Below, in pieces: positions 3,611 through 43,045 of a DNA stretch of 55,033 nucleotides. Position numbers and translations under genes: made by a program. The notes beneath the pieces were generated by a model. That model was given only the letters and a program-made list of their open reading frames with translations, was not told the DNA's origin and ran no database searches. Positions within the stretch are counted from its first letter, which is position 1, and each line of letters begins with the position of its first letter. The DNA is from a virus. Location: UHGV virus genome UHGV-0072939. One strand, 5' to 3'.

Positions 3611-4204
3611 TTATGCGTAACTGAAAATAAGACGCAGATGCGAGGGCGCAATTTTAGTGATCGCGCACTCGAGTTGTTTATTTCCCCAGGAGGCCAGAGA
3701 ATCACCGCAGTAAGATGCACCTGACAGTGCGTATTTGATGGTGGTTTGCGGGGCGTTAATCTGCCAGGTAAAAGGCCACTCATCGCCGTTCAGGGCATCG
3801 CCGCACGCCGACATACCGCACATCGCGGGGCGAAACTGTGTGATGGTGATGGTATACCCCAGCTCCGCCGCCACGCGGATGTAGTAATCGCGGTTCAGGC
3901 CGCCGGTACTGATGAGCTTTGCCACCACCAGGCGCTGGCGATCGCTGACTCCATCGATTTCACCGATAGTGCAGTCATCCGGCAGACCAAGCGTCGCTTC
4001 CCATTCCGGAAGCATACTGGTCGCAGTGGGCGGAAATGCCCCGGCAATGAGATTTACCGCATCGTCATCCGAACGCTGGAATGCACTTGCCAGGGCGCGC
4101 AGAACCGCCGCCTGTACTGTTTTTGATGCCCGTGGCCATGCCCTGCCGGTGGGCAGCAGCGCACCCAGCGCGCCGGCGTAATCATCTTTCGAAAAGAGGC
4201 TCAT
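3611..4204 (-). CDS. tail protein, YmfQ/DUF2313-like (Mu gp48 position)
   Basis: 197 aa; gene order and recalled similarity to e14 YmfQ / Mu R family. Confidence 0.65.
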   Translation of the reverse strand: MSLFSKDDYAGALGALLPTGRAWPRASKTVQAAVLRALASAFQRSDDDAVNLIAGAFPPTATSMLPEWEATLGLPDDCTIGEIDGVSDRQRLVVAKLISTGGLNRDYYIRVAAELGYTITITQFRPAMCGMSACGDALNGDEWPFTWQINAPQTTIKYALSGASYCGDSLASWGNKQLECAITKIAPSHLRLIFSYA

Positions 4205-5343
4205 ACAAAATGCACCTCACCCAGCACCGGAATTTCACCCACCGCAAACGTAATATTGGCCGTCGGAGAGTTCAGGATATAGCCCGTGGTGCCGTTAACA
4301 TCACCGATGCTCCCGTTGATATCCGAGAGATACACTTTCCCGGAGCCGTCAGGATTGGCCTCATCAAAAAACAGCGTTGTCAGCGCATCCCTGATGCCCT
4401 GTACCGTGGTGCTGTCGGCATTTTTGATCCCCGCAATTTCGACGTCGATGGTTTTCGGGACTGGAGAGCACACAAACACGATGGCTGTGTCAGTCTGCAG
4501 CGGGTAGATGTGATCGGCGACAGCCAGCTGGTCCCCGGTGGCCCTGAGCGCCCCCCAGTCTTCCAGCTGCGATATTCCGTCGGTACCGACAGGAAACCCG
4601 CCGCTGGCGTTCCGGTCACACATGATGTACACCCCGACGGTCCCGGCCCCGTTCAGGCGACGTTTTACCCACGCCCGGGTCACGCCAGGTACCTCGAGCG
4701 CCCATTTTTTATAATCGGTATCGCTGCCTCCCTGTGGCGGATTCTGCCATGCCAGCAGGCCACGGCTGCGAAACTCGTCTTCACTTTCAATGTCCGCCCC
4801 GCCGGTAGCGGCAGACAGCAGCGTCACCTGCGCATCCACCCCGGCAATATTGGCATCCAGTGTCAGAAGGGTCCCGGCATCCGCATTACCGCGGGCACCG
4901 CCCCCGGTCACATCGCTGGTGATATCCGGCAGTATGGCGGTCACGGCAACAGTACCATAGCCATTCGCCTGAATTTTCAGCTCAGCATCCGTGCGATACT
5001 GGTATCCGTCGCCACGGTTCAGGATCGTACCCGGAGGAATGATGCTGTCAGCGGCACCGGAGGCCTGTGCCGATGGCGATTTCGCGGCCATGGCTGGTTT
5101 ACGAAAAACCTGCTTCATGGCCATCCATCCTGCCTGGAACTCATCGGTAGACGTGAACGGGTTCGTCTGCAGGGCTATATAGTCCAGGTAGGCGTAGTGC
5201 AGATGTCCCATCCCGGCATCCATATCGGCGAGCACTTTCAGGTTAGCGAAGCGCAGCAGCGCGCCGACTCCCTCCAGCTCCGCCTGCATAAACTTCCGGT
5301 TTCCGTCACGCAGCTCGCTGAGCGTCGGTCGTTTAAACGGCAT
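4201..5343 (-). CDS. baseplate J-like protein (Mu gp47 / P2 gpJ family)
   Basis: 380 aa; synteny within Mu-like baseplate block; ATGA overlap with neighbours. Confidence 0.8.
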   Translation of the reverse strand: MPFKRPTLSELRDGNRKFMQAELEGVGALLRFANLKVLADMDAGMGHLHYAYLDYIALQTNPFTSTDEFQAGWMAMKQVFRKPAMAAKSPSAQASGAADSIIPPGTILNRGDGYQYRTDAELKIQANGYGTVAVTAILPDITSDVTGGGARGNADAGTLLTLDANIAGVDAQVTLLSAATGGADIESEDEFRSRGLLAWQNPPQGGSDTDYKKWALEVPGVTRAWVKRRLNGAGTVGVYIMCDRNASGGFPVGTDGISQLEDWGALRATGDQLAVADHIYPLQTDTAIVFVCSPVPKTIDVEIAGIKNADSTTVQGIRDALTTLFFDEANPDGSGKVYLSDINGSIGDVNGTTGYILNSPTANITFAVGEIPVLGEVHFV

Positions 5344-5344
5344 A

Positions 5345-5782
5345 TTAACGTTGCTCCCATATCCAGTAAAACCTGAATTCCTGCCAGTCTTTGCCCGGTG
5401 CCAGATACCGGATGATGAGGTTCAGGCGGTTCGGCATGACGATCTGCGCAACGGGGATAACATCGCTGACCACGCCATCATCCTTAAGCCAGGCAAGAGC
5501 CTCGCGCGCATATTCCTCCGCTCTTTTCGCCACGTCGGTCGTCAGTTTCTGCCTCCGGAGTAACCACAACCTTGACCCGAGCTGCGATTCATCACCAGAA
5601 TCCCCCCACCAGCCACGGCGATCGCTGCCTTCATAATCGTCATCCGCGCGCGCCAGCCGGTCGGTAAACAGGCTGTCCAGTATCGCGGTCTGTAAATCGT
5701 ACCCGGTGGTGAGTGCACCCGGGCCTTCCTGCCAGTCGGCAACCATCTCGTCCACGTTCCAGAAAGAGGCAATGTCGCTCAT
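5345..5782 (-). CDS. baseplate protein, Mu gp46-like
   Basis: 145 aa; position between V-like and J-like genes; recalled GP46 family features. Confidence 0.7.
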   Translation of the reverse strand: MSDIASFWNVDEMVADWQEGPGALTTGYDLQTAILDSLFTDRLARADDDYEGSDRRGWWGDSGDESQLGSRLWLLRRQKLTTDVAKRAEEYAREALAWLKDDGVVSDVIPVAQIVMPNRLNLIIRYLAPGKDWQEFRFYWIWEQR

Positions 5783-6363
5783 GTCACCTGCTCCTCGGGT
5801 TGTTCACTGCGGATATCGTCATTGCCTCTCTGGGCATTTTTAACCAGGTGATCGTGGTCGTTGTGTGCATCCCGCAGGTCTTTCAGCGTTCTGCTGTTGG
5901 TGTCGCAATTGTCCACGATGTCGCCGGTACATCTCAGAAGCGGGGTGTTCGCCAGAATCCCCTTGCTGGCGTTAATGGTCACGCTTGTGGCGTTGTTGAC
6001 TTCCACATCCCTGCCTTTTGCATCGACAAATACCCCCTCTTTGGTCAACAGCACCTCCTGCCCCCACTGGCTGTAGATAACGGTTTCGCCGTCTTTCAGC
6101 CCGGTGCGCCGGTACCCCTGATGATTCGTGGCAATGACCACCGGACTTGAACGGTCACCGCCAATAAAGGCCAGGACCACGTCGGTGCCTTTTGGCAGCC
6201 CGGAAGAAAAGCCAAACTCGGCGAGCCGCGGCGCGCTGGCGACCTCAAGCGGCGTCTGGTACTGAACAGTCTGCACAACACCACTGTCTTTCAGCGCAGT
6301 GATCCGGCCAATGCCCAGCATGCTGGCGATGCGGGTGGCGGCGCGCCTGACTAACTGGTTCAT
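5779..6363 (-). CDS. baseplate assembly protein V-like (Mu gp45)
   Basis: 194 aa; synteny; N-terminal OB-like region typical of gpV spike proteins. Confidence 0.7.
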   Translation of the reverse strand: MNQLVRRAATRIASMLGIGRITALKDSGVVQTVQYQTPLEVASAPRLAEFGFSSGLPKGTDVVLAFIGGDRSSPVVIATNHQGYRRTGLKDGETVIYSQWGQEVLLTKEGVFVDAKGRDVEVNNATSVTINASKGILANTPLLRCTGDIVDNCDTNSRTLKDLRDAHNDHDHLVKNAQRGNDDIRSEQPEEQVT

Positions 6364-7445
6364 GTATTTAACCCCGGTATCTGCTGGTAGAAGGCGTAGG
6401 GCTGAACTTCAAACGCTGCCGGCGGCATCAGTGTCATGCGTGCATGCGTCCCGTTGTCATCACGCATGTAGGTGACATCTGCCAGCAGCAGCTCGGTATC
6501 AGGGAGGCGGAACGTCGGCATATTCACCGGAATAAGGGTATTGGGCTCCCACAGATTCCCCGCCTCATCCCGCCAGGAGTCTGTCGTCACAGTCAGCGGC
6601 TTCGAGCGGCCATACCGGCGGTTCATTTCCCAGTCGATAGCGCGCTGCGCCTGTTGCGATGCCATCAGAGTGCTTTCAATAATGGAAATATGCTTTCGGT
6701 AGCGCATGCGGGCGGCTTCTGGATCCCTCGCCGTCGCCAGCGTCACGGCGTCATAGGCCGAATCCGGCGAATAGCCTGCTATCGGGGAAATACCCATAGA
6801 AACACCGACATAGTCAGAAAACCTGTCAGCCATCGATTTACGGTAATAAGCCTGCTCGACGTTCACACCCTCGGCAATACCGCTGGCGGCACGGCGCGTA
6901 CCTACGCGGGTCAGCAGCAGGTTGCCGTCAGGCTGGTCGTAATAAAGCAGGGCTGACCACCGGGCCACCCGCTCTATAATCTCTTGCGGTGACTCCCCCC
7001 AGTTAAGGGTGAACTGGGGAACCTTAATCAGATCGCTTACATCCGTCGAGACGCTGATGCCGTAATACGACGCCAGCCGCGTGGCGATTTCCAGCGCATT
7101 ACCGCCATTGATGACGTTATTGGGCCACTCAGCGGAGCAATCCACCAGATCCTGGCATTTGCTTCTCCCCGTCGCGCGCACCTCGTGGCGGGAGCGCGAT
7201 ATTGACGGCTCCCAGTCATCCACATAGCCCGTCAGTGTCAGGTCATTCCCGATACGGACGGTACAGGGCATCCCTTCTTCCACAAGCTGGCGGTTATCAC
7301 TGCCGGGGAAATAATCCATCAGGCCAAGATCGAAATCTGAGGGGAAACGTTCAATACCGCGGGTCACCCTGACAGAATCCCAGCCCTCAATAATTTTACC
7401 GCCGACCGTCAGCGAGACGGCTTCCTGCTCGCTGTCTGCACTCAT
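6360..7445 (-). CDS. baseplate hub / tail protein, Mu P (gp44)-like, P2 gpD-like
   Basis: 361 aa; synteny between DNA-circulation-like and V-like genes. Confidence 0.7.
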   Translation of the reverse strand: MSADSEQEAVSLTVGGKIIEGWDSVRVTRGIERFPSDFDLGLMDYFPGSDNRQLVEEGMPCTVRIGNDLTLTGYVDDWEPSISRSRHEVRATGRSKCQDLVDCSAEWPNNVINGGNALEIATRLASYYGISVSTDVSDLIKVPQFTLNWGESPQEIIERVARWSALLYYDQPDGNLLLTRVGTRRAASGIAEGVNVEQAYYRKSMADRFSDYVGVSMGISPIAGYSPDSAYDAVTLATARDPEAARMRYRKHISIIESTLMASQQAQRAIDWEMNRRYGRSKPLTVTTDSWRDEAGNLWEPNTLIPVNMPTFRLPDTELLLADVTYMRDDNGTHARMTLMPPAAFEVQPYAFYQQIPGLNT

Positions 7446-8845
7446 TGTCTCAGTACCTTCATGGTTACCGGCATAAACGCCGGATGCGGAACGCGCGCTT
7501 CCTGCACCAGTTCATCCGCACGGGCGGCATCCTGATACAGCCGGTTAGCCAGTGTCAGCGCCGGAAGGGGCTGCGCCATCGTGACCTGAATCAGTTCGCT
7601 CAGCCCGGATGCGCGATCGCTCATTGTGGCTAAAAAGGAAGATCTGATGGCGAGCAGACTGCCATACATACCGTCCTCCGCCCGGTCACCGGCCAGCACC
7701 AGCGCCTTATCCAGCTGAACAGAAACCCGCTGCGTTATCGCTTCAGCCTCATCGCGGCTGGTCGGGCTGGCATCAGCCGCTGCGCGGGTCATGGCCCCCG
7801 TGCACAACACAACGATCAGCGTGTTCATGGTCGCGGATATCGCCTTGCTGCTGTCGGATTGCTGGTATTCCGTGCTGATGGCATTAGCCAGTTTTTCCAG
7901 TGCTGAGATCCGGTCATTCACGCTGCCGGCACTGTCAAGAATGGCATTCACAACATCGGCGACACCCTGCACAAAGTCATCCGGGTTGGTTGAGTTATTC
8001 AGATGATCCACGGTATCGGTGATGTTTTTCCGGTCCATCACCGACTGCGCGGTCACCTGGTCGGCAAGCGCCTGAGTGTCCTCCACGTCGGCAGTCGGCG
8101 TATTGCCTGAAACAGCGGAAGAGCTACCACCGACTGGCCCCTTGCTGTAACGGCCATATTGCGTATTTCCAAACGTGGAATTCAGGACGTTACTGAGGTT
8201 TGTGACTTCGCTGATGGTGCTGTCCACCATATTCGTCCAGAACGTGACGGTACCTTTAATGGTGTTGATCGCCTGCGTAACACCGCGGATTTCACCCTTT
8301 ATCCTGGCGAGCGTACTGGCGACCGTCGTGCTCACCAGTTTCAGGTAGTTGGTGTTTACCGTATCGCCTGCGGTGGTACTGTCCGTGACCGCAAATACTT
8401 TAAGGCCTGACTCAATCGCCATCAGGGTGAACTCAAACACTCGGCCATTTTCTGTCGATCCGGAAATACGCAGACCGTTTTCAGGAATAGAAACCGTTAA
8501 TTCGCCGAGCGTCGGGTGGATCAGGGTACCGCTTCCCTTTGCTTCACAGGCGGCGATCAGCGACTGACGCTGGGTAATGGCATCGCCGCCGCCGTAGACC
8601 TGGCTGTTCTGGATAAGGAACCCGCGAATAATAAACCGCCGGGTGGCGCGGCCGATATCTTCAATCCACGCGGTATCACGCCAGGGGTACTCATGCACGG
8701 CCTGACGACGGCCGTGGCTGCCCTCTTCTGCCACAACGGCAAACGGCACGCCGCGAAACGAGCTGGCGCGCAGCTGGCTCTGCCAGTCATCGCTGGCACC
8801 ACCACCCATCAGGGACGTTATTACATCCTGGATAACTGGCATCAC
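7442..8845 (-). CDS. DNA circulation protein N-like (Mu gp43)
   Basis: 467 aa; position immediately downstream of tape measure; recalled family resemblance. Confidence 0.65.
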   Translation of the reverse strand: MMPVIQDVITSLMGGGASDDWQSQLRASSFRGVPFAVVAEEGSHGRRQAVHEYPWRDTAWIEDIGRATRRFIIRGFLIQNSQVYGGGDAITQRQSLIAACEAKGSGTLIHPTLGELTVSIPENGLRISGSTENGRVFEFTLMAIESGLKVFAVTDSTTAGDTVNTNYLKLVSTTVASTLARIKGEIRGVTQAINTIKGTVTFWTNMVDSTISEVTNLSNVLNSTFGNTQYGRYSKGPVGGSSSAVSGNTPTADVEDTQALADQVTAQSVMDRKNITDTVDHLNNSTNPDDFVQGVADVVNAILDSAGSVNDRISALEKLANAISTEYQQSDSSKAISATMNTLIVVLCTGAMTRAAADASPTSRDEAEAITQRVSVQLDKALVLAGDRAEDGMYGSLLAIRSSFLATMSDRASGLSELIQVTMAQPLPALTLANRLYQDAARADELVQEARVPHPAFMPVTMKVLRQ

Positions 8846-8911
8846 GCCTCCGGAAATAAAAAACCGCCAGAGCGGCGGTTAACATTGCTGATAGCGACCG
8901 GAATTTCTCGG

Positions 8912-10717
8912 TCAGTAAGACATGGGCAGCGTGATCCTGCCACCATCCCGGGTAATGTATTCCTTCCGTTCCCCTTTCCCGTCCACCATAGTGATTTCAA
9001 GCTTCATCTTTTGCTCTTCCATGGCACTTTTAAATGAGCGGGTGAGGTTTTCGGTCAGCACCTGCCCCGAGGCGCCCCCCTGCGATGCTGGCTGGATAAT
9101 GCCGGTTCCGGCCGTTCGCTCCGTCACCGGGGCGTCAGAAAAAACATTGTCAGGCGGATTTTCTGCATTAATGATCCGCTGGTAATGTCCAAGTACCGCG
9201 CCGGGATAGGCCTGATTTTCCTGCCCCCACCGGCGGGTGTCGTAACCGCCGTTGTAATATCGAAGCGCCAGCGGAACATTACCGCCCGAATTCTTCAGGT
9301 TCTCGGACAGAATTTGCGCACCTGCCATGATGTTTTGCCGCGGGTCGGTCCAGTCGGTAACGCCGGTCGACTGGAAATTTGACGGCATGATCTGCATCAG
9401 CCCTTTAGCCCCGGCTTTGCTGACTGCCTGCGGGTTACCTCCGGACTCCTGGGTCATTATGGCCTTCAGCAAGCGGGGATCCACACCGTATTGCTTGCCG
9501 GCTTCATTGAGTAGAACGTCATACTGTCCGCCCTGGTTATACGGTACATAGTTATTGCCGCCGACAGCAGGTCGGGTAATGGCAGCCATATCATCCTGCA
9601 GCTGGTTCGCCGTATCCGTCGCCCGGTAATTCGCATCGTAGCGTTTGCTCACGGCATCCGTCATAAACCCGGCATCCACCATCCCGCGCTCGCTGCGGGG
9701 CAGGCTGTTATAGAGTTCCTTGTCACCCTGAATACGGCGCAGTTTGGCCGCGTCCGCGCTGCTGATAAACCCCAGCGCATGCGACAGGCCGGTGAAATCG
9801 CCGTTGGTAAACAGGTCTGTCACGCCCTCGAGGCCGTCTTTCACCGACCCGTCGGAAAGCAGGCCTTTGAACAGCTTATTCTGCGATCGCTGCTTCAGTC
9901 CATCCCATGAGGCGCCCAGTTCGTTCATCGTGCCGTTGATATCGGACAGTTGTTTATTAAGTTCGGGATCGACCGTCAGCCCAAACGTATCGGATTTCGC
10001 CAGCAGGGTTTTCATGCGCTCGCCTTCACGCATCAGCGCCAGCATTTCAGGGGTAAAACCCATCGCATCAGCGACAGATTTCTGCTGCTCTGGTCGCAAC
10101 GTCGGGAACACGCGCGCGATCTCTTCCATGGTTTTGAGCGTATCGACTGAACCATCCTTGTTTTTCTGGATCTGCACACCAATTTGCGACAACGCGCCAA
10201 GGACCTGACCGTTTGCACCGCTGGCCGCTTCCTTCAGCGTTTTTGCCATCCCTTCAATCGATGCATTTGCGCTTTCGCTGTCAGCCCCCAGAATACGCAT
10301 GGCGCCCGCGAGCCGGGTAAAATCATCAACCCGCATACCGGCGTTTTTCGACGCTGTATCCAGGTTATACGCCTCCCGGGAGGCCTCCCGAAAACCGTAG
10401 GCAACCTGCTGAAGGCCATATCCTGCCGCCCCAACAGCACCGAGCGCACCCAGCTTGCCGGAGATTTCCCCCACCATTTTTAGCGGGGGAACCATATCAC
10501 CGATGAACTGCACGTTATCCCGCGCGCTCTTCGACATATTCTCCAGGCGTGAAATAAAACCGTTCAGCCCGTCGACCGTCTCCTGGCCGCCTAACTGGAG
10601 CCCTTCTTTGGTTTTATTCAGTTTCGGTTCCAGATCGCGGATAGCTTCGTCAATCCGGGTTATCGCGTCACTGACCTGATCGCTGGCCACCAGCTCAAAA
10701 TCAAAAGAATTACTCAT
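8912..10717 (-). CDS. tail tape measure protein with C-terminal lytic transglycosylase (SLT) domain
   Basis: 601 aa; C-terminal LLKAIMTQESGGNPQAVSKAGAKGLMQIMPSNF matches the SLT catalytic motif (ES...GLMQ); position after chaperone pair. Confidence 0.8.
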   Translation of the reverse strand: MSNSFDFELVASDQVSDAITRIDEAIRDLEPKLNKTKEGLQLGGQETVDGLNGFISRLENMSKSARDNVQFIGDMVPPLKMVGEISGKLGALGAVGAAGYGLQQVAYGFREASREAYNLDTASKNAGMRVDDFTRLAGAMRILGADSESANASIEGMAKTLKEAASGANGQVLGALSQIGVQIQKNKDGSVDTLKTMEEIARVFPTLRPEQQKSVADAMGFTPEMLALMREGERMKTLLAKSDTFGLTVDPELNKQLSDINGTMNELGASWDGLKQRSQNKLFKGLLSDGSVKDGLEGVTDLFTNGDFTGLSHALGFISSADAAKLRRIQGDKELYNSLPRSERGMVDAGFMTDAVSKRYDANYRATDTANQLQDDMAAITRPAVGGNNYVPYNQGGQYDVLLNEAGKQYGVDPRLLKAIMTQESGGNPQAVSKAGAKGLMQIMPSNFQSTGVTDWTDPRQNIMAGAQILSENLKNSGGNVPLALRYYNGGYDTRRWGQENQAYPGAVLGHYQRIINAENPPDNVFSDAPVTERTAGTGIIQPASQGGASGQVLTENLTRSFKSAMEEQKMKLEITMVDGKGERKEYITRDGGRITLPMSY

Positions 10718-10901
10718 CGTTGTCAGGGTTCCTGAGTTTGTTAATCCGGGAGGCCTGTGTCACCCACCAGGTCAGCCGGGCGCGGGTCATTCCCCACGCC
10801 CGGTCCTCAGACCAGCGGAAATAGAAGGTGATATCAGCGGCGGCTTCCTGCCAGACGGTCAGGGCTTCCAGGTCAAAAAACCGAGCAGGTACTCCTCGCA
10901 T
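10710..10901 (-). CDS. -1 frame extension of tail assembly chaperone (GT-like frameshift product segment)
   Basis: 63-aa ORF in the -1 frame overlapping the chaperone 3' end by 43 nt; no independent RBS; reading FFDLEALTVWQE directly after slippery TTTTTTG. Confidence 0.55.
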   Translation of the reverse strand: MRGVPARFFDLEALTVWQEAAADITFYFRWSEDRAWGMTRARLTWWVTQASRINKLRNPDNDE

Positions 10902-11137
10902 TTTCGAAAATCGATGAAGTCCATCGGCTGCAGCACGGATTCACGCGTGCCGGACACCAGCGCGATAAGCAGGCGCATCGCCGCCAGTGAGGTGGATGCG
11001 GCCTGTTTTTCATAAAACTGCTCTGCCTGGCTGAGCGTCGGGGCTTTCAGCTCCAGCTGCTCATAGCGGGTTTTCTGCGGCGCATCTTCAAGCGGTACCG
11101 CCAGCGAAATGATTTTTACACGTTCAATTTCTGCCAT
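10859..11137 (-). CDS. tail assembly chaperone (lambda G-like role), zero-frame product
   Basis: 92 aa, GGAG SD before ATG 11137; lies between tail tube and tape measure; ends just after a slippery heptamer. Confidence 0.6.
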   Translation of the reverse strand: MAEIERVKIISLAVPLEDAPQKTRYEQLELKAPTLSQAEQFYEKQAASTSLAAMRLLIALVSGTRESVLQPMDFIDFRKCEEYLLGFLTWKP

Positions 11138-11138
11138 C

Positions 11139-11510
11139 TTAGTTCTCCGTTACTTCACGGCCTTCCCAGCGAACATCAAATACAGCATCTTCGCTTTCCA
11201 CTTCCTGAACATTTACCGTCCAGAGCCCTTCACCAATAATCGTTTTACCATTTGCCAGCTCCGCAACGATGTTGACGTTGGTTTGCTCGTTAAAGCCCAG
11301 AACATTAGTCCCACCGCTATCACGTAAGCGGGCTGAGATGTACGGGGCTACAGGCTTTTCTTTATACCCGTGAACACCATCCATCCCCGTTAATGTCGTC
11401 CGATTAACCTTAGAGGGCTGATATTTAAAAGACCCTTCAACCATCACCGTCACACCGTTAACGGTGACGTACGCGGTCCCCGCCAAGCGGTTAGAAGTAT
11501 CACCTGCCAT
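11139..11510 (-). CDS. tail tube protein (Mu gp40-like)
   Basis: 123 aa; directly downstream of sheath gene. Confidence 0.75.
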   Translation of the reverse strand: MAGDTSNRLAGTAYVTVNGVTVMVEGSFKYQPSKVNRTTLTGMDGVHGYKEKPVAPYISARLRDSGGTNVLGFNEQTNVNIVAELANGKTIIGEGLWTVNVQEVESEDAVFDVRWEGREVTEN

Positions 11511-11513
11511 CGT

Positions 11514-13016
11514 TTACGCTCCTGTTGATTCTGCCCGCGTACGGAACTGGTTGAGTAACGCGAAAACGCGCAGCTGGTTAATAAGAGTTCCCGGCCACAG
11601 CACATCAACGCGGTTAGGGTTTTTGGCGTTCTGCTCAACAATGATGTTTTTGGCAAAGGCCGCCTTGTCCTGGGCATATCCGTTCCACACCAGCTTTCCG
11701 TATTCGGCGATCTGATCTGCTTTGATAATGTTCGGGGTGACAATCGCGGCGCCAGGCGCAAAACGGGTACCGTCAGCCGCCAGCTTCATCCGGCCAAACT
11801 TACTGGTCACCGCCGTGCGCAGGTAACGGGTCACAAACATCAGACTGAAGAGCGTTTCCACCTCGAGGTAGCTGTCATCTTCGTCGCCGTAGCTGTTCTT
11901 CTGGTAAGTGGTGATCAGGTTCTCAATACGCACCGTGCCGTCATCATCCACCGTAAACGTCGAAATGCCGCTGTATAGCAGGTTGTTACGCTCGGTCAGT
12001 TCAAAGCGGTCCTGCAACTCCGGCGCAAGAACCCCCAGGATAGCCAGCGACTGCACCGGGCGCCCCGGATCATTGCGCAGGCTGACCGCCGCCGCGCCGG
12101 TGTACCCGGCAGACCACACCCAGGAGGGCGACGGTGATTTATTCACGCCCATCAGCGTTTCATGCTGGTTGTTTCGCACCTCGCCTTTCGTTCCGAGCTG
12201 CGCATAGGTTCCGGTAGTCGTACCAAAGGAATGACCGTACAACTGCTTATCCCACGCCCAGCGACCGCCGACATCTGAAAGGAACGCCTTCATCGCATCC
12301 AGTGATGCGGTGTCGTCATAGGGGTTAACGATAAAGTCGAACGTCCGGTCCTGCAGGTTGGCCAGCGCGCCGGTGATATCCGGCGCACTGGCACCACCGC
12401 TCATGGCTGTAATGGTCAGTTCCAGGCCTGCAGGTGTCACCTCCCCACCAGGTGATCGGAGGTAGTTCAGGCGAACATCGATACCATTGCCAATGGCGCC
12501 AAGGTTTTTCGCTGTCAGGGTTACTGTATCAGTGGCCGCACTGGCGGTTACCGGCAGCGTGGTTTTTGCGTTAATCGCCGCCGCCAGTGAGGTGGCAATC
12601 GCGGCCGCCGTATCCGTTGCCACAACGGTCAGCTGAATTCGTTCTCCGGCGATGTACAGCGAAATGACCCCGGTTGCTGTGGGCGCGCTGGTCACTTTGA
12701 TAGTGCCGGTTGCGGCAACCATGGAAGCAGGGTCTTCCTCCAGCGGCAGGATCCAGACTTCGGCGGCGGTATCATTGTTCTGATACGCCGTCATCATGGC
12801 CTGCAGGATACTGCCCTTTCCGGCAAGATCGCCGACAGTATCAGCAGAAGAGACGCGTTCAGGAATACCGGCGGTTGCCGAACCGGAAGTCAGCATCCCA
12901 CCGATAAGCAGGGTGCGCTGCGTGGCCGTGGCGTTATTCGCCATCGAGTTATCAAACTCGACGAAGAACAGCCCCACCCGCAGGTTATCGGGGACTCGTG
13001 CGAAGGGTACGGTCAT
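11514..13016 (-). CDS. contractile tail sheath protein (Mu gp39-like)
   Basis: 500 aa; size and position upstream of tube gene; recalled sheath family resemblance. Confidence 0.8.
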   Translation of the reverse strand: MTVPFARVPDNLRVGLFFVEFDNSMANNATATQRTLLIGGMLTSGSATAGIPERVSSADTVGDLAGKGSILQAMMTAYQNNDTAAEVWILPLEEDPASMVAATGTIKVTSAPTATGVISLYIAGERIQLTVVATDTAAAIATSLAAAINAKTTLPVTASAATDTVTLTAKNLGAIGNGIDVRLNYLRSPGGEVTPAGLELTITAMSGGASAPDITGALANLQDRTFDFIVNPYDDTASLDAMKAFLSDVGGRWAWDKQLYGHSFGTTTGTYAQLGTKGEVRNNQHETLMGVNKSPSPSWVWSAGYTGAAAVSLRNDPGRPVQSLAILGVLAPELQDRFELTERNNLLYSGISTFTVDDDGTVRIENLITTYQKNSYGDEDDSYLEVETLFSLMFVTRYLRTAVTSKFGRMKLAADGTRFAPGAAIVTPNIIKADQIAEYGKLVWNGYAQDKAAFAKNIIVEQNAKNPNRVDVLWPGTLINQLRVFALLNQFRTRAESTGA

Positions 13017-13210
13017 TCAGTCTCTCCCTCTTTTTTCAGTGAAACACCTTTCGCTGGCGCGATCGTCTGCAGAGTGGCCGGAACCACATCACCGTCACTC
13101 AGCCGGCGGCGCCAGAAAATATTGGCAGGAACCTCTGCGCCGTCTGGCGGCAAAGGGCTGCCCTTGACGGGACAGCGAACGCTGAGCCCGTCTTTCGGTT
13201 TTACAAACAT
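13013..13210 (-). CDS. small phage protein (Mu gp38 position)
   Basis: 65 aa, ATGA-type overlap with sheath gene. Confidence 0.4.
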   Translation of the reverse strand: MFVKPKDGLSVRCPVKGSPLPPDGAEVPANIFWRRRLSDGDVVPATLQTIAPAKGVSLKKEGETE

Positions 13211-13213
13211 GAT

Positions 13214-13759
13214 TTACTCCTGGAGGTTGAGGCTGATACCAGGCTGTGGCGTACCGTCGGGTACGACAATCGCGATATCCACGCCTTCAAGGGGAACCGC
13301 CTGAACGGGATAAAAGTCTTCCGGCCCCTGATAATGTTCGATGTCGATTTCAAGCAGCAGCTGGCCCATATGCGCTTCACCGTCGGCATCGACATTGATG
13401 GTTGAGCGCACCTCGGCGTATTTCTGGATCTTCCGGGTCAGCTCATAGCTGTTGATGACCGCGCGCTCCACCTGATCCCGCAGCGCTTCCAGCGCCAGCT
13501 CTGCTTTCATCGCGCCATCATCTGTCGTATCGCCGTCGTACTCCTGTACCCGGCCAGTAATTCTGACGGTGGTGATGGTAGTAAACGCCGGGGTGTTCCG
13601 CCCCTGCGACTTTTTTTGCTCAAACGGCGTCTGAACCAGCAGCGCCGGATACAAGTCCACCGATGTTGACCAGTCGCGGGGGGAATACACGCTGCTGCCG
13701 GCGTCCGTGGCGCCGGTCAGCGCCGTGACCACCATCTGTCGTACTGCTGCTGCATTCAT
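13214..13759 (-). CDS. tail completion / neck protein (Mu gp37 position)
   Basis: 181 aa; synteny only. Confidence 0.45.
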   Translation of the reverse strand: MNAAAVRQMVVTALTGATDAGSSVYSPRDWSTSVDLYPALLVQTPFEQKKSQGRNTPAFTTITTVRITGRVQEYDGDTTDDGAMKAELALEALRDQVERAVINSYELTRKIQKYAEVRSTINVDADGEAHMGQLLLEIDIEHYQGPEDFYPVQAVPLEGVDIAIVVPDGTPQPGISLNLQE

Positions 13760-14115
13760 CGTTGTTTCACCACGTTAAGAACGAGTTTTGAGCCGCCATG
13801 GCTGTCCGGTTCGACGTTTGATACCACGAACAACTGATTCACAGGCTTTCCGCCGGCGGTTTTGATAAAGACACGATCGGACACCGCCGGGAGCGGTCTG
13901 CCGGAGTCTGTAAACTCTGCATCGCGCACCCCCAGTACCGGGCTCGTGGTATTTATCGCTGAATCACCGTCCAGATTTTCGGTTACCTGGGCGTAACCGC
14001 GGTCGAAAATGCCGTTTATCAGAAAGGGAGTACCGTTTCGGGGGCGGTACTCTTGCTCGTCGCCGAAGACACCATGCAGCGGACTCAGGAGGTGTAAATC
14101 CCAGTCCACGCCCAT
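13756..14115 (-). CDS. head-tail joining protein (putative)
   Basis: 120 aa from internal ATG 14115..14113 (the upstream part of the 174-aa ORF overlaps the neighbouring gene); synteny. Confidence 0.45.
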   Translation of the reverse strand: MGVDWDLHLLSPLHGVFGDEQEYRPRNGTPFLINGIFDRGYAQVTENLDGDSAINTTSPVLGVRDAEFTDSGRPLPAVSDRVFIKTAGGKPVNQLFVVSNVEPDSHGGSKLVLNVVKQR

Positions 14116-14119
14116 GGCA

Positions 14120-14473
14120 TTACCCCGAAGTGACTGTGACGGAGGGCTGGGCCGCCAGCACGCGCTGACGCAGTACACTGACATCGGCAATAATGCCCGC
14201 CTGCAGCAGGCGCTCTGCATCCTGGCCAGTGACCGGAATGACACTGTTTTCCCGGTAGACTTCGCCGTTGTGGCGGACACTGTTGCCCTTCAGGACAACG
14301 AATTCCGGCCCTTCCCTCTCATCATCGGCCTGAACTTCAGGATCACCTGCCATATTCAAATCATCAACGGATGGTTCTGTGACCAGGTCGGTTCCCCCGG
14401 CATTCAGGTTATCAATCCCAGGGTCTGCATTCAGATCGGCTGCAGGTGCCGGACTGTTTGTTGCTTTCGCCAT
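14120..14473 (-). CDS. hypothetical head-associated protein
   Basis: about 117 aa from ATG 14473..14471; immediately downstream of major capsid gene. Confidence 0.4.
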   Translation of the reverse strand: MAKATNSPAPAADLNADPGIDNLNAGGTDLVTEPSVDDLNMAGDPEVQADDEREGPEFVVLKGNSVRHNGEVYRENSVIPVTGQDAERLLQAGIIADVSVLRQRVLAAQPSVTVTSG

Positions 14474-14474
14474 A

Positions 14475-15524
14475 TCACACCACCGTTGCACAGAGGGACG
14501 CGTTTACCCTGCTCGGGATCACCAGCGGCGCAGACTGCATCATCAGCAGGCGCTGCGCCGGGTCTTCTTTCACCCAGGTTTTCGGGGCAAATGCCAGCGG
14601 GCCATAGTTGAACGCCGGATCCAGAATCACGCCGAATGCGCGGGTTCCCATCAGGTCTGCACCACACATAATCACCGCACCGTCCGGGATTAATGGTTTT
14701 TCCACACCGTCCACCGGATCAATGAACCAGTCGTTGTAGAGCCAGAGGTCGAAGTTACCCCAGCGTCCTTTATAAACGGCCCCCTTCTGAACCTGCGGAT
14801 CGGCGTTAATCTGGTTACCAAACGGGCTCAGCGCCGGGAAAGTGATGGCGTTATCCTTGATGGTGGTATCGAGACGGAACGCTTTCCACGATTTATTGGT
14901 GAACACCAGATCCGTCGGCACCCCACCGGACTCCTTCAGATAGAGGGTCTGCCAGTCTTCGATATCGTCGGAAGGCTGGGTATTGGTGGTACCGGCTGGT
15001 AAGGTCAGAGGCCATTTATCTGACCCACTCAGGGTGATGGTCAAATCCGGAGAACGGCCGAAATCCACCACCTGGGTTTCATAGCCGTCCCCCTGGACTT
15101 TCACCGTCCCGCTGACCAGCGCACTGGCCGCCATCCACTCCAGACGGCGGTTAATCATGTCAATCTGATCAGCCATCTCAAACTGCAGATTCAGCATTTC
15201 ACGCTCAGCAGCGGTGTACTCACCGCCGATACGCTCACCAATCTGGCGGCGAATCGGTTTACGAAGATCCGGCGCGCGCTTGTCCTTGATGTACGCAGGT
15301 TTGAAGGTGTTGGTCTGGTACTTACGGGACTCCACCAGCTTACCTTCCACCAGTGGGGAAACAAACGGCGACATACGACGCAGACCCACGTCAACATCGA
15401 TAGCCACCTCTTCCGTCTCGTAGGTCACCACATTCGGGAAGAAACGGTCCAGAAGCCAGTTCTGGCTGAGCTTCAGATTAGGAACCACCTGTACCAGCAC
15501 ACTGGTATCAAAAATATTATCCAT
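14475..15524 (-). CDS. major capsid protein, lambda gpE-like
   Basis: 349 aa; recalled matches to lambda E (MSPFVSPLVEGKLV vs MALYVSPIVSGEVI; SDDIEDW vs TDDIEAY; MMQSAPLVI vs MIQSAPLML). Confidence 0.8.
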   Translation of the reverse strand: MDNIFDTSVLVQVVPNLKLSQNWLLDRFFPNVVTYETEEVAIDVDVGLRRMSPFVSPLVEGKLVESRKYQTNTFKPAYIKDKRAPDLRKPIRRQIGERIGGEYTAAEREMLNLQFEMADQIDMINRRLEWMAASALVSGTVKVQGDGYETQVVDFGRSPDLTITLSGSDKWPLTLPAGTTNTQPSDDIEDWQTLYLKESGGVPTDLVFTNKSWKAFRLDTTIKDNAITFPALSPFGNQINADPQVQKGAVYKGRWGNFDLWLYNDWFIDPVDGVEKPLIPDGAVIMCGADLMGTRAFGVILDPAFNYGPLAFAPKTWVKEDPAQRLLMMQSAPLVIPSRVNASLCATVV

Positions 15525-15629
15525 AGTCAGTCTCTTGATGATGCCGGACGGTGGCCCGGCAGGAATTTGAAATACGCGATCCCCTGCCGGTTAAAGCACG
15601 GAGAAGGAAATATCCGGGGAAGCGTTAAA

Positions 15630-16031
15630 TCAGGAAACGGGTGCCTGAATGCTGTCGCGCAGGAAAATCGCCAGCGGGCGCAAGGCTGTCTTCAGGTCCG
15701 CAACAGTCCAGGAGGCATCAATAATGATACGGTTCTGGTTGAACTCACCCATCAGGTAAACACCGCCGGACTGATCGCCGTGCGTGGTGGCATCCACATC
15801 ATCCACCAGAATGGCGCAGGGCTTTTCGCTGCCATCGGTGGCAGTTTTCACGCAGGCCGTGTACTTCATGGAAGCCGTAATCTGCCCCAGCACAGTACCG
15901 CGCTTATAAATACCGCCGGTAATGGTGCCGGTATCAGTCACCAGCTGCAGATTACCAGCAACAAGCTGATCCGGCACAAACAGCGAACTTTTCATACCCG
16001 GCGCAAACGGACTTTGACCAAACTGATCCAT
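15630..16031 (-). CDS. head decoration protein, lambda gpD-like
   Basis: 133 aa; lies between scaffold and major capsid genes as in lambda C-Nu3-D-E. Confidence 0.6.
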   Translation of the reverse strand: MDQFGQSPFAPGMKSSLFVPDQLVAGNLQLVTDTGTITGGIYKRGTVLGQITASMKYTACVKTATDGSEKPCAILVDDVDATTHGDQSGGVYLMGEFNQNRIIIDASWTVADLKTALRPLAIFLRDSIQAPVS

Positions 16032-16609
16032 TATTTTTCCCCTTTCACAGAGTTGTAGAGGCTGGTCATCTTGCCCACCAGCGCAGATTTACCAGTCTGT
16101 TTTTCACCGTCCGGGTTCAGGCGCGCCTGGTGACTGGCCTGCATACGTTCATCCAGAGAACGACCGCGCTTAGGCTGCGATGCCGGCGCCTGCGAAGCCA
16201 TGACGTTGATGGCTGCAGCAGAGCTCATGCCGGTATTAAAAGCGAGCGATGCGGCAAGCGCTGGGTTGGCGGCAGCATGCGGGCTACCGAAGATACGGGC
16301 GCAGCGCTTACGCTCTGAAATACGCGCCTGGCGGCCAGACTTACTTTCTTTTCGGTCATCGCCATCATCGTCTTCAGCGTCCGGATCGTCTTCATCATCC
16401 TCTGCATCCGGATCGTCATCTTCGGCGCTTTTATCACGGTCATCGTCTTCCGCATCATCATCGCGCTCATCGTCTTCAGCATCGTCCTCGCGGTCATCTT
16501 CTTCCGCTTTACGTGCCTTCGATTTTTTGGTTTTTTTATCTTCATCTTCTTCTGATGCCGATTTTCCAAAACCCAGCAGGTGAGCAAAACTCGTCGTTTT
16601 CTTTGCCAT
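16031..16609 (-). CDS. scaffold-like protein with long acidic Asp/Glu repeat tract
   Basis: 192 aa; between protease and decoration genes; contains EDDREDDAEDDERDDDAEDDDRD... encoded by short DNA repeats. Confidence 0.5.
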   Translation of the reverse strand: MAKKTTSFAHLLGFGKSASEEDEDKKTKKSKARKAEEDDREDDAEDDERDDDAEDDDRDKSAEDDDPDAEDDEDDPDAEDDDGDDRKESKSGRQARISERKRCARIFGSPHAAANPALAASLAFNTGMSSAAAINVMASQAPASQPKRGRSLDERMQASHQARLNPDGEKQTGKSALVGKMTSLYNSVKGEK

Positions 16610-16610
16610 A

Positions 16611-17480
16611 TCAGGCTCCTGTTACTTGAAGTAAATGTCTGAACGCAGCATCAGGAGGGCATACCTCATCCGCCAGTCCAAGCTCCACACCATCAGCCGC
16701 CATAAAACAGGCCGCCCGCGTATTTTTGATAATCTTTGCGCTGATCCCGCGGTTGCGGGCAACGGTATTCACGAACAGCTCCCCCATGGTGTTGATGTCA
16801 TGCTGTATGGCCGCCAGCGCCTCTTCTGACAACTCACGATACGGAGAGCCCTCCGCCTTCCGGCTGCCGAAAGTAATGATGGTGACCTTCAGACCGTCCT
16901 CTTTAATGCGCTGCGTCCAGTCAAGGTGCATGGTGATGACGCCCACCGACCCCACACCGCCGGTGCGGGGAACAGAAATCCGGTCAGCCGCGCTGGCGAT
17001 GGCGTACGCAGCTGAATACGCGCTTTCCGTCAGAATGGCGTGGACAGGCTTTTCGCCGCGGGCGTTGTAGATTTCGTCCACCAGGTCGAAACATCCCGCC
17101 ACTTCCCCGCCCGGTGAATCGATATCCAGACAGATACCCTTCACATCAGGGTCGGCCAGCGCGGACAAAAACGCCTGGCGGATACCGTCATAGCCCGTCA
17201 TGCCACTGTACGGCCGCAGGCTGCCGAGCTTTTGAACCAGGGTTCCGCAGATGGAGATGACCGCAACACCCGCCACATTGTCATAGCCGGGGTCGCGCCG
17301 GGTTTCCCGCCCGCGGTTGTCGTCGTAGCCGTACCCGTCGTCATCGTCCATCGCCAGTGAGGTTTCAATTCTGGAGATACCGAACCGATCCATGACGGCC
17401 GCCATGATGACTTCGGCTTTGTTCGGGTGGATGGCCAGCGGCGTGTTAAACAGGCGCTGGGCCAGATGAGGTAGATTCAC
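16611..17480 (-). CDS. head maturation protease, S49 family (lambda gpC-like)
   Basis: 289 aa; ClpP/S49-like core; position after portal. Confidence 0.8.
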   Translation of the reverse strand: MNLPHLAQRLFNTPLAIHPNKAEVIMAAVMDRFGISRIETSLAMDDDDGYGYDDNRGRETRRDPGYDNVAGVAVISICGTLVQKLGSLRPYSGMTGYDGIRQAFLSALADPDVKGICLDIDSPGGEVAGCFDLVDEIYNARGEKPVHAILTESAYSAAYAIASAADRISVPRTGGVGSVGVITMHLDWTQRIKEDGLKVTIITFGSRKAEGSPYRELSEEALAAIQHDINTMGELFVNTVARNRGISAKIIKNTRAACFMAADGVELGLADEVCPPDAAFRHLLQVTGA

Positions 17481-19114
17481 TTTTCCTCCGGGTCTTTAAT
17501 CGTTTCGGGGGCGAATACATCCGCCTGCGCCCAGCTGGGTAGCGGCAGCCCGCGTTTCTTACAGGCATCAATTTCACGCTGGCGCTGATCGAGCACTTCT
17601 TCCCAGTCTTCACCGACGTTCTCACCCACCTCAATTTCGAGGGTGGAAAGCCCGGCATCCAGGCCAAGAATGGCGCCTTTCTTCTCTGCAACCGGATCCA
17701 CCCAGCCGCGGCCCGGCCCCATCCAGCGCGCGCGGGAATAGGCTGCTCTGGCGTCAACGAAGTCCGGTGCGCCGGCAGGCAGGGGTAAATCCTCGTTGTC
17801 GTGCACTTCCTCAGCAAAAGCGGTCACCACAGGTTGTGCGGTTCCCATGGCGAAATCGTCGCGGCGCCGGGTCAGCGTCTTCCAGGCCTCCAGCAGCGAA
17901 GAGCGCGCGGAGCTGTAGTTAACGTCAGACCAGTCCTGGGTGACCTGCTGCGGCGATAAGCCGGTACCGGAGGAGAAATTGCGCAGCACGGCAGATTCGA
18001 ACACCTCGAAGTTGCTGTAGGGCCTAGCCGCATTGACCGTGGTGATTTTTTCCCCGGGGTAAAGAATGGGCATACGGGCACCGTTCTGTAGGGTAAGCCG
18101 CCTGTCGTTGTGGAACTCAACACGTCCATCCTGATAAACACCCAGCTCGGATTCGTCATAGGTTTCCCCCATCGCTGCCTGTACCGCTGCCGGGTCATAG
18201 GGTGACTCGATATAGGCTGCAAAAATGGCGTTGAGAATGGCGGCCTCGAGCTCACTCTGGTCGTACTTCACCAGCATTTTCAGGCGCTGGACCACCGGCG
18301 TCAGGATGCCGTTTCCGCGATGCTGCGCACCGCGCTCATGGTCAAAGTCATGTACCACATGCGGGCGTCCCCAGGCCGTCTCGCGCGGGATACGCTGCCA
18401 GGTCATGGTTCTGGCCCCGCTCCACCAGTCACCGATATGGGCCTCCCGGATGTGGTAGGCCACCGGCGCACCGTCGGCGTCAATCTCCACACCGCCACGA
18501 ATATGCGGCATATCGAAATTCTGCTGCGGATTGCTGAGGCGATCAGGATCTACAACCTGCACCGTGGTGGCATAGCGCCCCCGTCCTCGTCCCAGCCGGT
18601 CCGTCCGGTACTGGAGCACCAGCAGCGCATCACCATCGATTAACTTATGGCGAAATGCCAGCCGTAGCATCTGGGGAACCGTCAGCTTGCGCTCGGCATC
18701 GCAGTAGCGCCCGGGGTCATATGCCCAGGTTCGCCAGTGCGCCTCCAGTGCCTTGCCATACTCTTCAGCCCACGTGGCATCGAATGACGGGTTCCCGGTC
18801 ATCATCATGAGTACCCGGTGATCCGGTTTCATAATGGGACGGAAGTTTGCACCGACAGCATTGTCCAGCAGACGGGTCACCGCACCGTTAGCCCAGCCAT
18901 CGTTACGGACCAGGTCCCGCGCGCGGGAGACAATCCGGTCCCGGTAGATGTTGATTTCGTTATCCGGCGACCAGAGCGCCGGTTGCCAGTTCGCCAGCTG
19001 GTCACTGAACGAATCCGCCGCGTCATAGGGCACGCGACTGCCGCCCACAAGCATCGAGGGCCGCGCCGGGCGTACCGGCTGACCGTCCGGCCCCAGTATC
19101 TGTACTTTATTCAT
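17477..19114 (-). CDS. portal protein, lambda gpB family
   Basis: 545 aa; position between gpW-like and protease genes; recalled lambda-type portal features. Confidence 0.85.
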   Translation of the reverse strand: MNKVQILGPDGQPVRPARPSMLVGGSRVPYDAADSFSDQLANWQPALWSPDNEINIYRDRIVSRARDLVRNDGWANGAVTRLLDNAVGANFRPIMKPDHRVLMMMTGNPSFDATWAEEYGKALEAHWRTWAYDPGRYCDAERKLTVPQMLRLAFRHKLIDGDALLVLQYRTDRLGRGRGRYATTVQVVDPDRLSNPQQNFDMPHIRGGVEIDADGAPVAYHIREAHIGDWWSGARTMTWQRIPRETAWGRPHVVHDFDHERGAQHRGNGILTPVVQRLKMLVKYDQSELEAAILNAIFAAYIESPYDPAAVQAAMGETYDESELGVYQDGRVEFHNDRRLTLQNGARMPILYPGEKITTVNAARPYSNFEVFESAVLRNFSSGTGLSPQQVTQDWSDVNYSSARSSLLEAWKTLTRRRDDFAMGTAQPVVTAFAEEVHDNEDLPLPAGAPDFVDARAAYSRARWMGPGRGWVDPVAEKKGAILGLDAGLSTLEIEVGENVGEDWEEVLDQRQREIDACKKRGLPLPSWAQADVFAPETIKDPEEK

Positions 19115-19374
19115 CAGAATCGAAACCTCACTGGTTTCCGTGGACGCACGACGATTCCCAGTTGCGCCTGCAGGAGCTGGATCAGCGCCAGCAGGTCTGC
19201 CAGGGTGCTTTGCTGGTAGGACACGGAGCGGGTGCCGTCTCCCTGGGAATAGGAAAACGAAACACCGTGGCTGCCGGTCGCTAAATCAATGTAGGCCTGC
19301 TGAGCTTTGGCGAGCGCAGCCCTGAGCTGTTCGTCGCTCATGCCAGCCAGCAGGCTGGTGTTCCGGTTAAACAT
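19114..19374 (-). CDS. head-tail joining protein gpW-like
   Basis: 86 aa between terminase large subunit and portal, as in lambda A-W-B. Confidence 0.7.
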   Translation of the reverse strand: MFNRNTSLLAGMSDEQLRAALAKAQQAYIDLATGSHGVSFSYSQGDGTRSVSYQQSTLADLLALIQLLQAQLGIVVRPRKPVRFRF

Positions 19375-19382
19375 ACTTTTCC

Positions 19383-25607: not shown

Positions 25608-26660
25608 TTATGTCTGGTTGAGCGCCTGCAGCTCGCTGACCGTCTGAATAAATCGCTCGGTCTCAAGCTCTACGCCGATCGCCCGGCGCCCAAGCTCCAT
25701 TGCCGCTTTCACGGTGGAACCCGAGCCCATAAAAAAATCGGCTACCGTGTCGCCCGGCCTGCTGCTGGCGCTGATAATCTGCCTGAGCATGTCAGCAGGT
25801 TTTTCGCAGGGATGCTTCCCCGGGTAAAACTGCACAGGCTTGTGGGTCCATACGTCGGTATACGGAACCGAGACGGATACAGAGAAACAGCGCCGGAGAG
25901 TTTTGTATTCCTCCAACAGCGCTGAATATTTCCGGTTGAGCGACTGGTATGTGCCCACCAGCTGGTGGTGTGGATGTTCAAGTTCCTGCCGCTGGTGCTT
26001 TTCTGCCGCGATGCGGGTGAACAGCTGCTGCAGCGTCAGGTAATCATTCTCGTTCGGTAACTGCCACTGGCTGGCGCTAAACCAGTGCGAGACCATATTC
26101 TTTTTGCCCGTGGCGTCGGCGATAGCTTTGCTCGTTACGCCAAGTGCCTCGCGGGCGTTGCGGAAATAGTCAATCAGCGGCGTCATGACATGCTGCTTGA
26201 GCTCGTTGCTTTTGCGGTCGTAACCGTCATCCTTCTCTTTGTATGGTCCCGTGTGATGTTCAGCAAAAAGAATACGCTCGGTTGCCGGGAAGTAAGCGCG
26301 AAGGCTTTCTTTATTACAGCCATTCCAGCGGCCAGAGGGCTTTGCCCAGATAATATGATTCAGGACGTTGAACCGCGCCCGCATCATGATTTCAATATCA
26401 GATGCCAGTCGATGCCCGGAGAACAGATACAGGCAGCCGGCTGGTTTAAGCACTCGCCAGAATTCCGCCAGACATCCGTCAAGCCAGAGCAGGTAGTCCT
26501 CATCCCCTTTCCACTGGTTGTCCCATCCGTCCGGTTTCACTTTGAAGTAAGGCGGATCGGTAACAATCAGGTCAATGGAGTTGTCCGGGAGAGAAGCGAT
26601 GAAATGCAGACAGTCAGCGTTGATTAACTCAACACTGTTTATTTTTACAGTATTTTTCAT
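25608..26660 (-). CDS. orphan DNA methyltransferase, amino-methyltransferase (N6-adenine or N4-cytosine) with DPPY motif
   Basis: 350 aa; DPPY near N-terminus and FFMGSGST (AdoMet-binding) near C-terminus, i.e. beta-class motif order; no adjacent restriction endonuclease gene. Confidence 0.8.
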   Translation of the reverse strand: MKNTVKINSVELINADCLHFIASLPDNSIDLIVTDPPYFKVKPDGWDNQWKGDEDYLLWLDGCLAEFWRVLKPAGCLYLFSGHRLASDIEIMMRARFNVLNHIIWAKPSGRWNGCNKESLRAYFPATERILFAEHHTGPYKEKDDGYDRKSNELKQHVMTPLIDYFRNAREALGVTSKAIADATGKKNMVSHWFSASQWQLPNENDYLTLQQLFTRIAAEKHQRQELEHPHHQLVGTYQSLNRKYSALLEEYKTLRRCFSVSVSVPYTDVWTHKPVQFYPGKHPCEKPADMLRQIISASSRPGDTVADFFMGSGSTVKAAMELGRRAIGVELETERFIQTVSELQALNQT

Positions 26661-42839: not shown

Positions 42840-43045
42840 ATCTTGAATGCGTACCCATATCAACTTACTGCCGTGACTCCGGCGAGACCGTAGAAGCTGT
42901 TAATAAACGGATACAAAGGGGATTATGGCAGGAAGGGGTCCATATATTAAAGATCGATGGCGTAAAAGAGCGCTGGATTGATTTAACTGAGGTCACGAAA
43001 TGGGCGAGAAAAAACAAGGATCCTTACAGCTCCCACGCGGTATAA
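42836..43045 (+). CDS. excisionase-like protein
   Basis: 69 aa immediately upstream of and overlapping the integrase gene. Confidence 0.5.
   Translation: MNLECVPISTYCRDSGETVEAVNKRIQRGLWQEGVHILKIDGVKERWIDLTEVTKWARKNKDPYSSHAV

Follow-up and report, generated by a model that had tools for sequence, protein, structure and literature searches.

A putative P2-type programmed -1 ribosomal frameshift in the tail assembly chaperone gene of an Escherichia coli prophage with a Mu-like tail

We analysed UHGV virus genome UHGV-0072939, a stretch of 55,033 nucleotides (nt) that is referred to here as the window and to which all coordinates refer. It holds an integrated, non-transposable Escherichia coli prophage whose head is lambda-like and whose contractile tail is Mu-like; the site described below and the tail genes lie on the minus strand. 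Our analysis indicates that the tail assembly chaperone gene of this prophage very probably contains a programmed -1 ribosomal frameshift of the type found in genes E and E+E' of phage P2. A frameshift with G-like and G-T-like chaperone products had been proposed from the letters of the DNA (hereafter the sequence-only reading), and this proposal is now supported by the gene order, by membership of the Phage_TAC_7 family, by frame-specific selection, by the missing starts of the second reading frame and by homology to P2. From the comparison of relatives and the P2 precedent, we infer that a fusion of 142 amino acids (aa) is translated in addition to the short chaperone. The type of frameshift is known, and it has so far been unannotated in this prophage lineage.

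The zero-frame open reading frame (ORF) of the chaperone occupies positions 10859-11137 and encodes 92 aa, the 'G' product, which is P2 gpE-like according to the ORF listing, Pfam and PHROGs; its TGA stop is at 10859-10861. As the sequence-only reading had stated, this ORF ends four codons past the slippery heptamer T_TTT_TTG, located at 10874-10880, where the plus strand reads CAAAAAA and the minus strand TTTTTTG. The heptamer, identified by its register, conservation and likeness to P2, consists of codons Phe87-Leu88 and the T of Gly86 (GGT). A script check placed its first T at offset 257 of the 92-aa ORF; with 257 mod 3 = 2, frame 0 divides the site as GG[T TTT TTG], in the canonical X_XXY_YYZ register. 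TTTTTTG is the only in-register heptamer within the chaperone ORF; between it and the TGA there are four sense codons (ACC TGG AAG CCC), and the -1 frame is open from the heptamer down to 10710. Translation after a slip gives a 'T'- or E'-like extension of 54 aa (DLEAL...DNDE, 10710-10874) that ends with the TAA at 10710-10712. The predicted frameshift fusion would thus span 428 nt (10710-11137), the same span as P2 E+E', and its size is 88 + 54 = 142 aa, which corrects the earlier estimate of roughly 135 aa. The junction had been read as FFDLEAL, the plain -1-frame reading of the heptamer region; for the product, tandem slippage predicts ...LLGFL followed by DLEALTVWQE. The tryptic junction peptide predicted for the 142-aa fusion is CEEYLLGFLDLEALTVWQEAAADITFYFR.

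To characterise the conservation of the site we used two sets of relatives. The close set comprises 98 loci from genome and viral collections, which collapse to 52 unique 428-nt sequences that are 72-100% identical to the window. The distant set, obtained by scans with the proteins of BZS1 and Xenorhabdus, comprises 44 loci from Serratia BZS1-like and Xenorhabdus-like clades with about 47% identity to the window. TTTTTTG is found in register, four codons before the stop, in 98 of the 98 close loci, and T_TTT_TTG or T_TTT_TTA is found in register in 42 of the 44 distant loci. The zero-frame stop of the distant clades shifts to 10, 11 or 14 codons past the heptamer, versus 4 in the close clade, and these clades keep the -1-frame extension motif W-Q-x-x-A-A-[DE]-V-T...W...A-W...R-L-x-[WF]-W...Q-A-x-R. 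Among slip-prone tetramers, those inside the heptamer alone are conserved throughout the 52 unique sequences.

Analysis of the substitutions in the same 52 sequences showed that the variable columns at codon positions 1, 2 and 3 number 35, 20 and 79 in frame 0 upstream of the site, and 23, 18 and 39 in frame -1 after the zero-frame stop. The 48 codons of the extension past the zero-frame stop have a ratio of nonsynonymous to synonymous substitution rates (dN/dS) of 0.137 and 0 stops when read in frame -1. Read in frame 0, they have a dN/dS of 1.37 and 149 stops, and in frame +1 a dN/dS of 1.95 and 224 stops; the dN/dS of the chaperone ORF in frame 0 is 0.089. The extension is thus under purifying selection in the -1 frame only, which indicates that it is translated in this frame. 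We also observed that only 4 of the 22 columns from the heptamer to the zero-frame stop (10859-10873 side) vary, with flanking third positions nearly saturated, and that TGA to TAA changes at this stop preserve it. This near-invariant block 3' of the heptamer is explained in part by dual coding, and the 3' context or the stop position may affect slip efficiency.

The ORF that was mechanically listed in the -1 frame, and that the sequence-only reading had correctly described as a 63-aa ORF overlapping the chaperone, extends from 10710 to 10901 on the minus strand and opens with an ATG at 10899-10901. This ATG is present in the window and in 12 of the 52 unique relatives, and the PHROGs family phrog_10636 corresponds to such small ORFs called separately, so that the 63-aa ORF could be taken for an independent small gene with its own start at 10901. 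We consider this very improbable, because the start codon is not conserved: 30 of the 52 relatives lack any ATG, GTG or TTG in the interval from the last -1-frame stop to the heptamer. Of these 30, 28 have the synonymous Cys codon TGT, which makes a -1-frame TGA right after the position of the window's ATG (itself derived from the zero-frame AAA TGC, Lys-Cys), and the other 2 have a TAG that abuts the heptamer. The window has no Shine-Dalgarno (SD) motif ahead of the ATG either, as none of GGAG, GAGG and AGGA occurs in the 30 nt upstream of it, and the codon periodicity of frame -1 sets in as soon as the overlap ends, far ahead of codon +30, where the next conserved ATG lies. These data agree with the earlier claim that the -1 ORF lacks a ribosome-binding site of its own.

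The P2 E and E+E' products result from a -1 frameshift at TTTTTTG (Christie et al. 2002; Xu et al. 2004; both as summarised in PMC3091744), and the P2 GenBank record gives an E of 91 aa, an E+E' of 142 aa and a 428-nt span with the -1 site at the end of TTTTTTG. The window shares the 428-nt span, with products of 92 and 142 aa, and in both phages the gene lies between the tube and the tape-measure genes. The heptamer falls on Gly-Phe-Leu codons in both (GTC GGT TTT TTG, V-G-F-L, in P2; CTC GGT TTT TTG, L-G-F-L, in the window), the stop of the extension and the start of the tape-measure gene share ATGAGTAA, and MSN are the first residues of the tape measure. Additionally, the N-terminal part belongs to Phage_TAC_7 in both cases (47.8 bits for P2 E, 34.2 bits for the window), SD-like purines are present upstream, and both lack a downstream RNA structure. 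The two systems differ in the spacing of the SD-like element (AGGTG/GGTGG at 6-7 nt in P2, 13-15 nt in the window clade) and in the zero-frame stop, which is 6 codons past the site in P2 and 4 in the window. They also differ in sequence, with low identity between the fusion proteins (BLASTP, 24% over 67 aa, E-value 4e-4, with an alignment that crosses the junction), and in their surroundings, since the tail around the window's site is Mu-like and the head lambda-like, not P2-like. On these alignments and shared positions, the verified P2 E/E+E' site and the window site are positional homologues.

Several observations weigh against a P2-type ribosomal frameshift in the window. The Pfam model PF06528 (Phage_P2_GpE) misses the extensions of the window, of Xenorhabdus and of BZS1 even at E-values up to 10, whereas P2 E' scores 2.1e-22. 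A hhalign comparison of a 12-sequence profile of the extension with P2 E' aligned the two at equivalent positions (columns 97-131 versus 101-135) with an E-value of 7.3e-5 and a probability of only 62%; at best, the extension appears to be a divergent relative of P2 E'. The fusion is annotated in none of Citrobacter phage phiNP, Serratia phage BZS1 and three RefSeq E. coli genomes. PMC4066793 does not list U_UUU_UUG with the E. coli motifs of highest efficiency, so that the window's frameshift may be infrequent; the lambda model, for its part, expects a low rate. The downstream stem-loop or pseudoknot suggested by the sequence-only reading was not recovered by folding, consensus structure or Rfam: single-sequence folds of 54 and 94 nt were no better than shuffles (z = -0.47 and -0.33), and Rfam had no frameshift-element match at the site. 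RNAalifold on 16 diverse sequences yielded a consensus fold of -12.6 kcal/mol (covariation term -0.41) in which the heptamer itself is paired; the co-occurring CTG to CTA and CAG to CAA changes are synonymous, not compensatory. For P2 and its relatives, no downstream RNA structure is reported either (PMC3091744).

A further point of this kind is the T6 homopolymer at the site, kept in 98/98 and 42/44 loci, on which RNA polymerase could stutter and add one U in some mRNAs, giving the junction GFF-DLEAL. The database protein P0001, with 7 T's, shows that one additional T yields the fused frame. Bacterial RNA polymerase slippage, however, generally needs runs of about 8-9 or more, and the motif is always in the tRNA-slippage register. 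In addition, the homologous Gly-Phe codons of one relative (L207) read GAG GGT TTT ACC, a canonical G_GGT_TTT heptamer that has four T's only and leads into the conserved extension in the -1 frame; this favours slippage by the ribosome over slippage in transcription. For P2, too, the homologous event is described as a translational frameshift (GenBank annotation; PMC3091744), and we regard transcriptional slippage as improbable. We give next to no credence to the idea of a chance coincidence of heptamer and open -1 frame, in which the 141 nt ahead of the tape-measure gene would be a non-coding spacer. Annotators have left this stretch empty, and TTTTTTG is not rare in the window (19 copies observed versus 13.1 +/- 3.7 expected), so that the heptamer alone is within chance and the case rests on position, register and conservation. 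Against coincidence, frame -1 is the only one with no stop and with a dN/dS of 0.137 in the unique sequences, and the extension protein is conserved out to the clades at about 47% identity and is similar to P2 E'. The relatives have diverged at synonymous sites (pS = 0.47) and hence are not mere copies.

In a P2-type ribosomal frameshift, most ribosomes would translate 10859-11137 and stop at the TGA, producing the 92-aa chaperone. A minority would slip with Phe-tRNA and Leu-tRNA on the UUU-UUG of U_UUU_UUG; both tRNAs would re-pair one base 5' (UUU-UUU), and translation would resume at GAC in the -1 frame and continue to the TAA at 10710. The resulting 142-aa product would combine the chaperone N-terminus with a 54-aa C-terminal domain. 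We infer that the slip is ribosomal, and the same holds for its efficiency and for what the two products do. The lambda G part attaches to the tape measure and the T part to the tube protein, virions contain neither, and the gpG/gpGT ratio is set by slip efficiency (PMC5009743). The functional model of lambda may be carried over to the window by analogy: the part common to both products would coat the tape-measure protein, recruitment of the tube protein would fall to the extension, a low slip rate would set the ratio of the two products, and both would be left out of the virion. The lambda and window elements share gene position and logic, in that one start gives rise to a chaperone in a short version and, less often, in a version lengthened at the C-terminus. 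They differ in that lambda has the heptamer G_GGA_AAG, no detectable sequence similarity to the window and a non-contractile tail.

Upstream of the heptamer, our analysis uncovered an SD-like GAGGAG at 10892-10897, 11 nt 5' of the heptamer on the minus strand, as a candidate stimulator. GAGG is present at 13-15 nt in 52 of the 52 unique close sequences, and an SD-like motif is present at the same distance in 30 of the 34 unique distant sequences, in both cases against a background of 14%. GAGG persists despite amino acid replacements at the codon pair (CEE, CQE, CRE, CKD), and of 85 third positions just 6 are invariant, among them that of the GAG codon and three in ATG codons. Both the sequence and the spacing of GAGG(AG) agree with what PMC4066793 gives for stimulatory SD-like elements. 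It is plausible, from this conservation, that GAGG(AG) acts as an SD-like frameshift stimulator by anti-SD pairing. Signals such as those of E. coli dnaX and of IS911 and the IS3 family also have an SD-like element upstream of the motif, a criterion taken from PMC4066793, with the stimulatory effect in the window being a candidate one. Unlike them, the window has no downstream hairpin or pseudoknot starting 4-10 nt past the motif. Inside the extension, Rfam returned a sub-threshold match to Termite-leu RNA at 10771-10827 on the plus strand (22.2 bits versus a gathering score of 51, E-value 0.03), which is almost certainly due to chance.

The 8-nt overlap ATGAGTAA between the extension stop and the tape-measure start (10710-10717, minus strand) is invariant in the close clade and identical in P2, and the tape measure starts with Met-Ser-Asn. 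The tape-measure ATG has only a weak AGGA, 12 nt upstream. The shared overlap and the weakness of this motif hint that tape-measure translation is coupled to frameshifted ribosomes. GAGG(AG), the near-invariant 22 nt from heptamer to stop and the ATGAGTAA overlap might then form a composite signal that also couples tape-measure initiation to frameshifted ribosomes, a speculative reading that we consider unlikely. If it were true, a single recoding event would fix the relative amounts of chaperone, chaperone-extension and tape measure all at once. To our knowledge, coupling of tape-measure synthesis to frameshifted ribosomes has not been demonstrated to date.

The gene order on the minus strand is sheath, tube, 92-aa chaperone, -1 extension, tape measure, and then Mu N-like and Mu P-like proteins. 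The tail sheath protein (500 aa, 11514-13016) matches Pfam Phage_sheath_1 (E-value 9.5e-23) and Phage_sheath_1C, and the tail tube protein (123 aa, 11139-11510), directly upstream of the chaperone, matches PF10618 Tail_tube (E-value 1.1e-36). The tape measure protein (601 aa, 8912-10717), the presumed chaperone ligand, was identified by gene order and by its C-terminal SLT lytic transglycosylase domain (Pfam SLT, E-value 1.5e-27), and its homologues in phiNP and BZS1 are labelled 'tape measure protein'. Gene order and Pfam thus confirm the earlier placement of the chaperone pair between the tube and tape-measure genes. The 92-aa ORF itself belongs to PF10109 Phage_TAC_7 ('E, or 41 or 14'; E-value 2.7e-8, 34.2 bits versus a cut-off of 25), with a match that spans profile positions 4-78 of 79, and to phrog_166 'tail protein' in PHROGs (E-value 1.7e-26). 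The last 44 residues of the -1 ORF fall in phrog_10636, a family of unknown function (PHROGs, E-value 7.9e-21), which indicates that the extension has already been called by others as an orphan small ORF. No NCBIfam model matched the chaperone part or the extension, and a PDB sequence search with the fusion returned nothing relevant.

The tail-assembly-chaperone frameshift of dsDNA tailed phages, as described by Xu, Hendrix and Duda in 2004, is reportedly conserved. Three features of this class are present in the window: the location between tube and tape-measure genes, the overlapping ORF without its own start and the in-register slippery sequence. Members of the class also make a short and a frameshifted long product that are both required for tail assembly, which in the window has indirect support from the purifying selection on the extension in frame -1. 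The tail module of Mu has a homologous position and includes a Mup38-like DUF2635 protein, sheath L, tube M, chaperone, tape measure, N, P and gp45-48; Mu gp41 matches Phage_TAC_7 weakly (24.7 bits). Mu, in contrast, has a verified -2 shift, not a -1 shift (Mu annotation; PMC5009743), and its gp41, of 144 aa, belongs to PF23746 Gp41_Mu (9.1e-35). The window's chaperone ORF matched only PF10109 at E-values up to 0.01, with no match to PF23746, and BLASTP of Mu gp41 and of its extension against the window proteins revealed no similarity (E-values of 6.1 and 36). The -2 (= +1) frame of the extension in the window clade is the one that carries 224 stops in 52 sequences and a dN/dS of 1.95, whereas the -1 frame has none. 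These comparisons show that a P2-type -1 site can reside in a Mu-like tail module, where Mu itself uses -2, and illustrate that the chaperone cassette and its mode of recoding are exchanged or evolve independently of the other tail genes.

Relatives were found in 51 of 5,426 complete E. coli genomes, and also in Citrobacter, Klebsiella, Kluyvera, Edwardsiella, Salmonella, Serratia and Xenorhabdus. In phiNP, BZS1 and the three RefSeq E. coli genomes only a chaperone of 92-96 aa is annotated, and about 120-141 nt ahead of the tape-measure gene are left blank. When the fusion was used as query, a protein search recovered about 120 clusters, which held in essentially every case just the 92-aa product under the name 'phage tail assembly protein'. 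The main value of our finding is one of annotation, as the 142-aa product is missing from every annotated record examined in a widespread enterobacterial prophage lineage. Its extension is unrecognised by the Pfam GpE model and appears in PHROGs as a 44-aa family of unknown function.

Two database entries resemble natural fusions, and neither was used as evidence of the product. P0001 (Raoultella, 134 aa; L101, 2501-2905) has 7 T's for 6 and a second indel, and a viral contig (L102, 1201-1563) shows insertions of N's adjoining homopolymers; we class both as assembly artefacts, and entries of this sort could mislead searches for natural fusions. We also detected two copies of the chaperone cassette, L209 and L215, in the Xenorhabdus contig IMGVR_UViG_2718218031_000006. 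The L209 copy, which matches L015, is degraded, with a chaperone frame interrupted by an A8 run and an extension that is divergent beyond its first 30 residues or so. To judge from this decay, the copy looks like a decaying prophage or tailocin-like remnant.

The window was identified as a prophage because of its lambda-like head genes, its tyrosine integrase (43000-44175) and a flank that is 100% identical to E. coli chromosomes. The prophage (positions 1-44200 as surveyed here) is a mosaic, with minus-strand structural genes at 3611-21512. The head module comprises a lambda-like terminase gpA (19383-21512), a lambda-family portal (17477-19114), an S49 protease (16611-17480) and capsid protein E (14475-15524), all on the minus strand. 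The Mu-like tail proteins include gp48-, gp46-, gp45-, P- and N-like proteins in addition to the sheath and the tube, and no Mu transposase was noticed. The host flank carries an AIDA/pertactin autotransporter of 1569 aa (44480-49189) and a DUF5508 protein (49972-50763). The part of it that is 100% identical to E. coli chromosomes is segment 49300-55033; in those chromosomes the region bears alpha-amylase-family, ypjC-like, recombinase and tRNA-Ile features, and the match indicates both the host and the approximate prophage boundary.

Other prophage genes include two DNA methyltransferases, one of the N6/N4 type (350 aa, 25608-26660) and the other a 679-aa protein (31327-33366) with an N-terminal C5-cytosine methylase and about 550 other residues without Pfam assignment. 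At the tail-fibre end of the prophage there are an S24 peptidase of the LexA/UmuD/repressor-like kind (168 aa, 413-919) and an Acyl_transf_3 membrane acyltransferase (372 aa, 1510-2628), which could be an O-antigen-modifying lysogenic-conversion gene.

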